Below, one piece after another: positions 48,977 to 50,885 of a stretch of DNA of 64,000 nucleotides; the stretch's first letter is position 1, and each line of letters starts with the position of its first letter. A model generated the notes under the pieces. It saw only the letters and a list, made by a program, of their open reading frames with translations. It did no database searches and had not been told where the DNA came from. Made by a program: the position numbers and the translations under genes. Origin of the DNA: Fistulifera solaris (Eukaryota); assembly GCA_030295235.1 (NCBI GenBank), contig AP026125.1, forward strand, positions 1,674,001 through 1,738,000. Reading direction: 5' to 3'.

Positions 48977-50885
48977 TTATACTCCGTAGTCACTTCGGTA
49001 TTGCGCAACACTTCGTCTCGTCTCATCGTCGTATCCGGGATGTTGGTCCAAAAACGACTGGAGTTGAGGTAAATTCACAATAGAAACAACGTTCAGGCCC
49101 AAGTCTCTCTCCACCGCTTGCACGGCTGAAATCTTGTCTTCTGTAGACCGAATCTCGGCCCGATCAAGAGCTATGACAACTCCTATTGGTTCTGCATTCA
49201 CCGCTTTCAGCAGATTGTACGACTCGCGAATGGCAGTACCCGCGGTGATGACATCATCAATAACAAGCACCCTCTTTCCGTCCATGCTCGCGCCTACCAG
49301 AGTACCACCTTCACCATGATCTTTCGCTTCCTTACGATTGTAAGCAAAACCAATGTCAACACCGAAATCGTTGTAAAGGGCGCTGGCCACGACCGCCCCC
49401 AACGATATGCCTTTATATGCAGGGCCGAAGAGCACATCAAACTTTAAGTGGCCGGATGGGTCAACGCTGTGTTTAATAAGGAAAAAGTAAATGTTAGTCA
49501 TGGTATCAAGACATACATGTAACATGGGAGCTTTTGAGTACGAAAAACGTTTTGATCTCAGAAATCTATCGAATCAGCGATTTGGTGTTGACCGGCATCT
49601 TCCAAAAGGAATTAGGTGAAAGAAGACCAAGAAGTCATCACAGATCAAATGCGTTTTCTATTTGTGGGTCAGATGCACTTGTAAAATTTGTTTCATCGCC
49701 AACTCACGTGGGGGCGGATCAATAACACGGACCAAGCGCTTTGCTCTTCATACCCATAATCGTAAACACCATCAGAGTCGGTACTTACAGTGAGGATGAA
49801 TTCATAATTGTAGATGCATAGGCCTTCCCTAATCTGAAAAGAGCTGCGCCAGTGGCAAAGAGGCCGGCGTTGAAAAAGTAAGGCGACGTTCGTCCACTTT
49901 TCAGTACGAAAGAACCGAATTTCAAAACACCTTGTTCCAGACTGAACTCCAGAAACTCCTTCTGATACGGCAAAATACTAGTTGAGCTGGGATGGGATGT
50001 TTGCTCTCGTACTTGTTTTCGACATATTTCAATTTGCTCTTGTAGCTCTTTCGCTGTCGCAGTAGGATTCTCCGCTTTGCTGATGCCACGAGAGACGGGT
50101 ATCAGCATACCTGTTCCTTCTGCGTTCAATCCGGCCTGTAGCGCCTCTGATAAGTTCCCACCTTGAGCACCGACACCGGGAGCTAATATCCACACTTTTC
50201 TCTCCCGCGGCCTTCCGTGCCGCTCGCAAAGCCACTGGATCCGTCGCACCCACCACGAGACCCAAAGTGGCCGTCGGAGCTTGGGATGACCACTTCTGAC
50301 CGACCAGCTGTGCGATGTATTCATAAAGCGTCGTATTCGATTTTAAGTCCAATTCCAAGAAATCTTTACTACCCGGATTGGACGTTTTACACAAGAAAAA
50401 TGCTCCTTTCGAGTTGTACTTTGCTGTGGACGTGAAATGAGAAATAATAACGTTATGGAAGAAGATGTGGCGCCTGCCTCACGTACCTGTGATGAAAGGA
50501 GCAACCGAGTCCCATCCCATAAGGGGCGACAGTGTTACTGCATCAGCACCAATGTGTTGATACGCAGCATCGGCATATGCCGCTGCAGTGGAGCCAATGT
50601 CCCCCCGTTTGCAATCCAAAAGGACGGGAACATCATCAGGGATCACTTCTTCGACAATACGTCTCAAAACTTTCAGACCATCGTCACCAAGGGCTTCGAA
50701 GAAAGCAGCATTAGGCTTATAGCATGCAGCATAAGGCAGAGTTTGATCAATCAGAGTCTTGCAAAGGTGAAAGCGGCGTCTGGAGTAGCGGAACCCAACT
50801 CCTGTTCGTGTGGATCAAGACCTACACACAGAAGAGAATTGATCGAAGCGACACGCTTTTCTAATTTTTCTTGAAAACTTGACAT
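48977..50885 (-). CDS. UMPS: Bifunctional UMP synthase in OMP decarboxylase - orotate PRTase order; introns 50424-50486 and 49467-49788; apparent frameshift near 50200
   Basis: [32 protein letters not shown] and PGVGAQGG (ODC), then [36 protein letters not shown] and [10 protein letters not shown] (OPRT); both introns are GT-AG and restore frame. Confidence 0.95.
49551..49649 (-). ncRNA. Intronic box C/D snoRNA with elements complementary to the LSU rRNA GAAUCAGCGGGGAAAGAAGACC region
   Basis: Minus strand: TTTGATC-T-GTGATGA...CTGA-GATCAAA (7-bp terminal stem, canonical C and D boxes); contains GGTCTTCTTTC and CGCTGATTC. Confidence 0.75.
49665..49756 (-). ncRNA. U18: Intronic box C/D snoRNA, U18 (SNORD18)-like
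   Basis: Minus strand: TGGG-T-ATGAAGA (box C variant)..CTTGGTCCGTGTT-A-TTGA (guide + D')..GCGATGA (C')..CTGA-CCCA. The guide is complementary to conserved LSU rRNA AACACGGACCAAG, the known U18 target site. Confidence 0.82.

Follow-up and report, generated by a model that had tools for sequence, protein, structure and literature searches.

The gene for UMP synthase (UMPS) in the diatom Fistulifera solaris is interrupted by an intron of 322 nucleotides (nt), and the question raised by this locus is whether that intron is the source of two small nucleolar RNAs (snoRNAs). The gene lies in a 64,000-nt stretch of contig AP026125.1, referred to here as the window. An original prediction had placed two back-to-back box C/D units in the intron, on the host strand and each with a terminal stem, and had related the first of them to the snoRNA U18. 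To our knowledge, hardly any diatom snoRNAs have been described. The literature that was searched, supplements not covered, contained no description of these snoRNAs or of any snoRNA in a UMPS intron, and in the text consulted of a small-RNA survey in Phaeodactylum a snoRNA appeared in the authors' own work only as a quantitative PCR reference (PMC4247016).

The two units were found, and the most probable reading, to which we give a probability of about 87% on the strength of comparative sequence data, is that the intron carries two genuine box C/D snoRNA genes made from UMPS pre-mRNA. The constant position of the intron in relatives, the covarying stems and the match of an independently built model of the second unit (R1, E 4.6e-25) argue for two snoRNA genes and against a chance resemblance. 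The main features are the following.

48977..50885, minus strand: host gene UMPS, with an N-terminal OMP decarboxylase and a C-terminal orotate phosphoribosyltransferase (OPRT); three exons, two introns (Pfam PF00215 and PF00156)
49467..49788, minus strand: 322-nt GT-AG intron housing both predicted snoRNA units (sequence; frame restored on removal; contigs join 49466 to 49789)
49665..49756, minus strand: unit 1, predicted U18-type box C/D snoRNA, 92 nt (SNORD18 match of 25.9 bits over the full length; terminal stem covariation)
49649..49664, minus strand: spacer between the units, 16 nt (spacers of orthologues longer and unalike)
49552..49648, minus strand: unit 2, predicted box C/D snoRNA, 97 nt (model R1, built from 19 other loci, 96.9 bits, E 4.6e-25)

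The Host Gene and Its Long Intron

The intron extends on the minus strand from GTAAGT at its 5' end (49788) to ACAG at its 3' end (49467), and contains a branch-point-like ACUAAC at 49498-49493, which is a motif match only. Excision of 49467-49788 produced a single reading frame across the flanking UMPS exons, in the OPRT half, with IMNSSSL as the last residues ahead of the joint. Contigs of four sequencing runs (X1 to X4), whose RNA nature is a guess since none is recorded as RNA, were also used. The joint 49466/49789, at which exactly 49467-49788 is skipped, was observed in one contig of X2 (depth 28.3) and one of X3 (depth 17.5), and in both runs the depth was high on the exons and almost nil on the intron. 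The predicted length of 322 nt was thus confirmed. A range of 61-176 nt had been given for the other introns of the window, and for this claim one further intron was confirmed and no more, at 50424-50486 (63 nt), joined in contigs of X3 and X4.

The exon downstream of the long intron matched the Pfam family Pribosyltran (PF00156, E 7.6e-15), and two of the three upstream exon pieces scanned matched OMPdecase (PF00215, E 5.2e-15 and 0.0015); no Pfam family was matched by the third, 50751-51002. The host is therefore a fusion of OMP decarboxylase and OPRT, that is, UMP synthase, as had been proposed. The closest named proteins to the last exon were diatom UMPS with 67–77% identity, Mayamaea being the top match (77%), followed by Nitzschia, Cylindrotheca, Pseudo-nitzschia, Thalassiosira, Skeletonema and others (67–74%); the UMPS of the bolidophyte Triparma reached 67%. 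As written in the window, the UMPS frame is broken at 50196 and at 50762. All of the run contigs covering these places have one T fewer in the T run 50196-50199 and one A more after 50762, and once these homopolymer lengths are adopted and the two introns taken out, an open frame of 507 amino acids runs from the first methionine. Therefore, the host gene is probably intact, and the two single-base length differences are likely assembly homopolymer errors or strain differences.

In one X3 contig (depth 9.98), 49460 is connected to 49788 through five other letters; this contig occurs beside the main 49466/49789 joint and may reflect allelic variation, use of an alternative 3' site or an effect of the assembly. 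A second haplotype or strain was also represented in the contigs. Over the 207-nt snoRNA stretch 49550-49756 it differed from the window by one substitution (49581) and one inserted base (after 49606), located in a variable spacer and a hairpin loop of unit 2, and exon contigs of 155–199 nt carried 7–15 differences. An X1 contig covering 49550-49756 and an X2 contig covering 49551-49681 were considered as marking RNA ends and rejected: the ends 49550/49551 lie 31–32 letters from the variant at 49581 and are therefore ends of an assembly bubble.

Conservation of the Intron and of the Two Units

Relatives were collected by an exact scan of metagenome contigs with an 18-mer composed of the unit 1 guide and D' box. 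This gave 44 loci; relatives with a changed guide are missed by the scan, and conservation of the 18-mer itself is no evidence because it was the search key. In 40 of the 44 loci the guide is preceded by a C box and followed by a D box with a complementary stem. On visual inspection, L051 and L054 were not snoRNA-like, and L063 and L089 were U18-like and of another type: L063 has one unit (598-719) with its own hairpin and the same ACUUG/CAAGU helix, and L089 has two in tandem (1021-1281).

A tblastn search with the window exons detected UMPS exons next to the guide, in the same orientation, in 29 of the 44 loci, at 53–75% identity to the window; in L057 the UMPS match was weak only (OMP decarboxylase). 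Both flanking exons could be read as far as the junction in 19 loci, and in every one of these an intron containing the guide interrupts the gene at the same codon position; these introns begin with GTAAGT and end with AG, and the gap measures 334–519 nt. The original prediction had named a lack of conservation in orthologous introns among the results that would speak against it, and boxes, stems and intron position were all conserved. Among the loci of UMPS context that extend well past unit 1, a full unit 2 was found in 22 of 23 and a partial one in the remaining locus (L056).

The other 15 loci had no UMPS match. Some are cut short, and others contain a unit-1-type RNA elsewhere: in an intron of another gene (L079/L090), upstream of a gene for an RNA-recognition-motif (RRM) protein (L058/L069/L076/L080), or in other non-UMPS surroundings (L055/L060 and L050). 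The copy in L058, L069, L076 and L080 is nearly identical to unit 1 of L084/L085, including about 50 nt upstream, and is followed by a different C-box-bearing stretch and then by the RRM-protein gene. This copy has the appearance of a U18 gene duplicated to a place outside UMPS, in the same or a close organism. In L068 (1-900) both units are intact (87.2 bits with R1, described below). The intron is followed there by weak, frame-broken OPRT remnants, with two collinear matches of 15–20 amino acids (E 0.017) and a GFGPPAHKD stretch seen by eye, and the locus looks like a decayed host copy still bearing snoRNAs. L074 (1-700) carries a cluster nearly identical to that of L075, has only about ten OPRT-like codons past the 3' splice site and then diverges; a chimera in the contig, a further intron or rearrangement of the allele may account for this.

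UMPS sequences were placed in a quick maximum-likelihood tree of 31 rows and 395 columns, restricted to loci in which all three exons were matched and with identical rows merged; the tree was rooted at the midpoint only, and many of its deep forks are open. The window fell in a clade with support 100 together with Mayamaea, Epithemia, Nitzschia, Cylindrotheca, Pseudo-nitzschia, L062, L070, L086 and L092. Ten other cluster-bearing loci formed a group (support 84) outside this clade and apart from the named Thalassiosirales, L056 stood alone and L066 was on a long branch. The predicted UMPS-hosted snoRNA pair is thus a feature of loci both inside and outside the raphid pennate clade.

The structures were assessed by covariation. 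For the ten box-adjoining pairs of the unit 1 terminal stem in 27 distinct sequences, 73.2% were paired compared with 56.6% in shuffles, and the covariation score was 0.466 against 0.198, with none of 500 shuffles as high; the true register (slide 0) was better than all six slid registers. For the terminal stem and D'-C' hairpin of unit 2, analyzed in 19 sequences without the window, 81.7% were paired compared with 75.0% in shuffles, the score was 0.189 against 0.123, none of 500 shuffles was as high and slide 0 was again best. The hairpin pairs of unit 2 were paired in 96.4% of cases in the 19 sequences, its closing pair being U-A, U-G or C-G. The unit 2 signal comes from the outer pairs and this closing pair because the three box-adjoining pairs (GUC/GAC) hardly vary.

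The covariance model R1 of unit 2 was built from the 19 metagenome sequences, window excluded. In the 64-kb window it had one match, at 49650-49548 on the minus strand. It was also scanned over 92 loci, 44 guide-bearing and 48 controls with ribosomal DNA (rDNA). Scores of 81–107 bits were obtained in 24 of the 44 guide-bearing loci, of which 19 had built the model; L056, where only the 5' half of unit 2 is recognizable, gave 28 bits, L078 gave 15.9 bits at an unrelated place (E 0.27), and no match was found in the 48 rDNA controls. That a long intron should resemble box C/D motifs by chance can be entertained since short boxes are common and the SNORD18 match has an E value of 1.6 over the window. 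This explanation is refuted by the R1 match, the covariation, the conserved intron position and the absence of R1 from the rDNA controls, and its probability is negligible.

The same data bear on whether the conserved blocks are cis-acting elements of the UMPS pre-mRNA, serving splicing or expression and not released as stable RNAs. In its favor, the blocks stay in the UMPS intron, and the run contigs gave no direct sign of stable small RNAs. Against it, the unit-1-type RNA occurs outside UMPS in L079/L090, L058/L069/L076/L080 and L055/L060, L068 retains both units beside decayed OPRT-like sequence, and no splicing element is served by box C/D motifs, terminal-stem covariation and perfect complementarity to rRNA. 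We consider such cis-acting elements very improbable, and return to two snoRNA genes, taken one by one.

Unit 1, a Predicted U18 Orthologue

Both units have a C box (RUGAUGA type) at the 5' side, a D box (CUGA) at the 3' side and a terminal stem, and in both an antisense element of at least 10 nt ends just 5' of a D or D' box (13 bp in unit 1, 11 bp in unit 2). The features of unit 1, all on the minus strand, are as follows.

49756-49753 paired with 49668-49665, minus strand: terminal stem UGGG/CCCA (sequence)
49745..49751, minus strand: C box AUGAAGA (AUGAUGA, AUGACGA, AUGAGGA or AUGAUUA in orthologues)
49724..49736, minus strand: predicted guide CUUGGUCCGUGUU, complementary to large-subunit (LSU) rRNA AACACGGACCAAG
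49719..49722, minus strand: D' box UUGA (register as in the SNORD18 consensus UGGUCCGUGUUUCUGA)
49692..49716, minus strand: D'-C' hairpin CGCC...GGCG and C' box GAUGAA (nearly invariant in 26 of 27 aligned sequences)
49675..49681, minus strand: CAAGUGC, 3' arm of an internal helix (pairs with GCGCUUG, 49739-49733, at the 5' edge of the guide; covaries)
49669..49672, minus strand: D box CUGA (G and A invariant in 27 of 27 sequences)

The unit begins 32 nt past the 5' splice site, and its elements are arranged in the order UGGG-U-AUGAAGA-CUUGGUCCGUGUU-A-UUGA-CGCC(CCCACGUGAGUU)GGCG-GAUGAA-AU-rich-CAAGUGC-CUGA-CCCA. The hairpin is replaced by a different one in L092. Its loop CCCACGUGAGU (49701-49711, minus strand) is almost invariant in 26 of the 27 sequences. 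No rRNA pairing of the loop within 200 nt of the U18 site recurred in more than two of 33 non-diatom LSU loci; the loop may pair with diatom-specific rRNA or bind a protein.

SNORD18 was the best Rfam match on the 651 nt of 49300-49950, with the whole model covered (25.9 bits, E 0.016), and it was also matched at 27.2–33.7 bits in six of ten related loci scanned. In the alignment, UGGUCCGUGUU-A-UUGA of the window faces the consensus UGGUCCGUGUU-U-CUGA, with guide and D' box in the same register. The proposed Rfam check thus returned a full-length SNORD18 match, at a score below the gathering threshold of 41 bits; for this reason Rfam is a lead and a register for unit 1, not a proof. The only match in the window above its gathering score was a 5S rRNA gene at 9895-10013 on the minus strand (101.6 bits, E 4.5e-21). 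Chance-level matches (E 1.1–4) to mir-1422, MIR8562, the CPEB3 ribozyme and ceN28, at 40166-40341 (minus), 30632-30708 (minus) and 20487-20524 (plus), scored far under their gathering scores.

The rRNA used for target assignment came from 48 eukaryotic rDNA loci contaminating prokaryote assemblies; eight were annotated with Rfam and all eight were LSU_rRNA_eukarya. The unit 1 guide forms 13 perfect pairs with LSU AACACGGACCAAG in four of four eukaryotic LSUs examined. The pattern with which these LSUs were fetched contained the target site; the match therefore demonstrates the existence and location of the site in LSU, not the breadth of its conservation. Other matches of at least 10 bp differed from LSU to LSU. 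The fifth nucleotide upstream of the D' box (U, 49727) pairs with the A of LSU AAC-A-CGG, so that on the LSU of other eukaryotes the D' guide selects the A of AAC-A-CGGACC, the adenosine to which the rule of five nucleotides upstream of D' had pointed in the original prediction. The yeast counterpart of this U18 site is presumably A649. In Arabidopsis, 25S A661 is assigned to U18 (PMC8053127, Table 1).

Within unit 1, CUUG at the 5' edge of the guide pairs with CAAG-N just before box D. Of the 24 sequences that contain CAAG, 15 had G-C as the flanking pair, 8 had A-U and one had G-U (Fisher p 1.2e-5, sequence kinship ignored); the helix was shifted in three of the 27 sequences. LSU around the U18 site reads CUUGAA-ACACGGAC-CAAG, and the 3' arm of the helix (UUCAAG in many relatives) could pair instead with the adjoining rRNA on the 5' side of the target. 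Because the flanking pair that covaries is incompatible with the rRNA sequence, the intramolecular helix is real; the two pairings may alternate. Extra base-pairing has been described for yeast U18 (PMC3116282, PMC5389607). The region on the D-box side was also considered as a second methylation guide and was dropped in favor of the internal helix, because its 10–12 bp matches differ between LSUs and the distance from CAAG to box D varies.

Unit 2 and Its Predicted Target

The features of unit 2, all on the minus strand, are as follows.

49648-49643 paired with 49557-49552, minus strand: terminal stem UUGAUC/GAUCAA (sequence)
49635..49641, minus strand: C box GUGAUGA (sequence, alignment)
49618..49628, minus strand: predicted guide GGUCUUCUUUC, complementary to LSU GAAAGAAGACC
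49612..49615, minus strand: D' box CUAA (by position, directly before the hairpin and C' box; family pattern C-U-N-A)
49595..49611, minus strand: D'-C' hairpin UUCC-UUUU-GGAA, running into C' box AAGAUGC (AUGAUGC in several orthologues)
49587..49593, minus strand: element GGUCAAC, with UGCC before it (invariant or nearly invariant columns)
49572..49579, minus strand: element CGCUGAUU, containing a second CUGA (complementary to LSU AAUCAGCG)
49558..49561, minus strand: terminal D box CUGA (sequence, alignment)

The order of elements is UUGAUC-U-GUGAUGA-GGUCUUCUUUC-ACC-CUAA-UUCC-UUUU-GGAA-AAGAUGC-CGGUCAAC-variable-CGCUGAUU-AU-rich-CUGA-GAUCAA, and the unit ends 85 nt ahead of the 3' splice site. 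In the 20 aligned sequences the guide is invariant except for its first G, which is missing in one (L075). The invariant or nearly invariant parts are GGUCUUCUUUCACC, the A of the D' box (C-U-N-A), UGC-N-GGU-Y-AA, CGCUGAUU and the terminal CUGAGA. No convincing rRNA partner was found for GGUCAAC; its best pairing, of 5–6 bp, is with GUUGA or UUGACU, which lie on the 3' side of the target in a non-collinear order. The Rfam matches of unit 2, to SNORD11, SNORD100 and SNORD113 (E 0.08–4.9), were weak and confined to the C box and stem, and no match at E up to 1 was obtained for it in ten related loci. Two candidate guides were set aside: the segment between the two CUGA motifs, which varies in length and sequence, and nt 35-44, whose 10-bp match to small-subunit rRNA AAAGGAAUUG overlaps the D' box and hairpin.

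The guide forms 11 perfect pairs with LSU GAAAGAAGACC in two of two complete LSUs, and the target region reads GGGGAAAGAAGACCCTGTTGAGCTTGACTC in all five LSUs covering the site. With CUAA as D' box, the fifth nucleotide pairs with the middle A of GAAAG, which lies 4 nt 5' of A2282, the Arabidopsis site of U15. Accordingly, no unit 2 guide places the U15/snR13 site 5 nt from a D or D' box when D' is CUNA. The yeast equivalent of Arabidopsis A2282 is, we assume, A2280/A2281.

An alternative is that unit 2 is the diatom orthologue of U15/snR13 and methylates the conserved adenosine (Arabidopsis A2282) through a non-canonical D' box further 5' (approximately UCAC), instead of the adenosine five nucleotides from CUNA. 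The unit 2 guide spans that site. Accessory pairing is common to yeast snR13 and the U15 of human and Arabidopsis, and the unusual D' box of yeast snR13 (UCGA/CUCGA) shifts its site (PMC5389607, PMC3116282, PMC8053127). UUUCACC before CUNA is moreover invariant in 20 of 20 aligned sequences, including an A that would mismatch the rRNA, which hints at a role beyond pairing. On the other side, CUNA stands exactly at the D' position, directly before the covarying hairpin and the C' box, and is a canonical CUGA in L062; UCAC lacks the G and the A of a D box. A shift of 3–4 nt would be needed compared with the 1 nt described in yeast, and the SNORD15/snR13 models of Rfam were matched neither in 49300-49950 (E up to 10) nor in the ten loci (E up to 1). 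We therefore regard an orthologue of U15/snR13 with a displaced D' box as unlikely, and CUNA as the preferred D' box of unit 2.

The second conserved element, CGCUGAUU, is the exact complement of AAUCAGCG, 2 nt 5' of the guide target, in one of five LSUs; we take yeast LSU to have this exact form as well. Since CGCUGAUU is 3' of the guide on the snoRNA and its complement is 5' of the target on the rRNA, the two pairings are collinear, like one long duplex broken by the D'-hairpin-C' module. The element is invariant apart from one U-to-C change in L064; this change would break the rRNA pairing and yet occurs in true D boxes, and therefore a box-like role of CGCUGAUU may also exist. Yeast U18 and snR13, as well as the U15 of human and Arabidopsis, have been described as using accessory pairing (PMC3116282, PMC5389607, PMC8053127).

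Two separate conserved complementarities to one rRNA stretch, together with the degenerate D' box and the conserved GGUCAAC of unassigned role, would also suit an RNA acting mainly as an rRNA-folding chaperone, which clamps LSU AAUCAGCG-GG-GAAAGAAGACC with two complementary elements during assembly. Chaperone-type clamping of rRNA is exemplified by snR190 and by domain A of U14. Unit 2 has, however, the standard architecture of a modification guide, its guide ending 2–3 nt before a D'-like box, and accessory pairing is known to serve methylation (PMC3116282). A role mainly in clamping is quite improbable, and a methylation guide with an accessory element is preferred for unit 2.

Discussion

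Several observations weigh against two genuine snoRNA genes with the targets given above, or limit them. The SNORD18 score of unit 1 (25.9 bits) is below the threshold of 41, as is the maximum in relatives (33.7), and over the whole window its E value of 1.6 is no better than those of chance matches to unrelated families. The C box of unit 1, AUGAAGA, departs from the consensus, and the D' boxes of both units are non-canonical. Single-sequence folding of the units was no better than that of shuffles (z -0.83 and -1.19). In the RNA-like runs the intron depth was 0–6 compared with 100–700 on the exons, a result that poly(A) data would give either way. All of the target claims rest on the LSU rRNA of other eukaryotes, not on that of the diatom, and the accessory pairing is exact in only one of five LSUs, the other four carrying 1–3 mismatches. 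The position predicted for unit 2 is absent from the Arabidopsis table of 2'-O-methylated nucleotides, which lists A2257, A2282 and G2289 in this stretch (PMC8053127); six Arabidopsis position labels looked for were not found in PMC8583080. As a caveat, the U18-type unit also occurs outside UMPS in several loci, e.g., in L079/L090.

Compared with U18 (SNORD18, yeast snR18; RF00093), unit 1 has the same D' guide UGGUCCGUGUU, one spacer nucleotide and a D' box leading to the same LSU adenosine; it too is intron-encoded and has a D' guide only. Yeast U18 is located in EFB1 and human U18A-C in RPL4, whereas the host of unit 1 is UMPS, not a translation gene, and its intron is shared with a second snoRNA. 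Unit 1 also differs from U18 in scoring 25.9–33.7 bits, under the Rfam gathering threshold, and in having a conserved 20-nt D'-C' hairpin and a covarying helix from the 5' edge of the guide to the sequence just before box D. Its D' box lacks the leading C, as does the D' box AUGA of yeast U18 (PMC5389607).

Unit 2 resembles U15/SNORD15/snR13 in the LSU stretch with which it pairs, GGGGAAAGAAGACC, and in a distinct conserved element that matches the neighboring rRNA by complementarity, of the accessory-guide kind (PMC3116282, PMC5389607, PMC8053127). It differs in having no detectable sequence or Rfam similarity to that family and in a predicted site 4 nt 5' of that of U15/snR13, and, unlike Arabidopsis U15, it has no second guide for G2289. 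As judged by sequence and alignment, unit 1 is a new member of the U18 family, and unit 2 is by the measure of Rfam a candidate new box C/D family, a standard guide with an accessory element.

Intronic snoRNA clusters, with several snoRNAs in one intron, are known in rice and other plants. The locus resembles these in having more than one snoRNA in one spliceosomal intron of a protein-coding gene, and the precursor therefore needs a cut between the units. It differs in that the pair and its host intron have been kept across many diatom-like lineages whose UMPS exons are only 53–75% identical to those of the window, and in the length of the window spacer, only 16 nt. Such a stable association with a metabolic host gene is unusual, although it does not amount to a system of a new kind.

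A mechanism following the steps of snoRNP (small nucleolar ribonucleoprotein) assembly, trimming and methylation established for box C/D snoRNAs can be proposed. The core proteins Snu13, Nop56, Nop58 and fibrillarin would bind the box motifs during or after splicing, a cut in the 16-nt spacer would separate the two snoRNAs and exonucleases would trim each RNA back to its terminal stem. Unit 1, as the U18 orthologue, would direct 2'-O-methylation of the A in LSU AAC-A-CGG. The neighboring C may also be methylated, as in yeast, a second methylated nucleotide being possible because the D' box lacks its first C. In yeast U18 a D' box without the leading C goes with methylation of two neighboring nucleotides; in Arabidopsis it does not (PMC5389607, PMC8053127). 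Unit 2 would direct 2'-O-methylation in LSU GAAAGAAG, within GAAAG of GGGGAAAGAAGACC, where the rule of five points to the middle A. In yeast constructs, a C as last guide nucleotide made the D' box longer and displaced the site by one position (PMC5389607). The last guide nucleotide of unit 2 is also a C, and hence the site could be the middle or the third A of GAAAG. The element CGCUGAUU would probably assist as an accessory guide by pairing with the rRNA just 5' of the target.

The original prediction had also suggested that the arrangement couples nucleotide supply to rRNA modification. The snoRNA output would be tied to UMPS transcription only through the common transcript, and such coupling is only a trivial consequence of co-transcription. 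In Phaeodactylum, the genomic and the cDNA versions of PtUMPS both complement uracil auxotrophy (PMC7431573), and the intron is therefore unnecessary for UMPS function in that diatom.

A wider picture may be drawn from these elements, which is rather unlikely to hold in all its parts. The linkage of the pair with the UMPS intron would predate the split of raphid pennates from at least one other large diatom lineage and would have been kept by selection, so that guides are made in step with de novo pyrimidine synthesis. The intron would outlive the coding function of a duplicated host in some lineages (L068). Unit 2 would be lineage-specific and would add, next to the conserved U15 site, a methylation of the LSU that yeast, plants and animals lack; its accessory guide would double as a second D-like box.

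The analysis yields two well-supported candidate box C/D snoRNAs of a diatom, predicted LSU targets open to RiboMethSeq and a covariance model that finds unit 2 in other genomes. PtUMPS is used as a counter-selectable marker in Phaeodactylum (PMC6156588, PMC7431573). If Phaeodactylum carries the cluster, deletion of PtUMPS or its replacement by cDNA would also remove two rRNA-modification guides, which would be relevant to strain engineers. Moreover, a snoRNA pair fixed in one intron of a metabolic gene, despite exon identities of 53–75%, would provide a clean case for the stability of the link between snoRNAs and their host.

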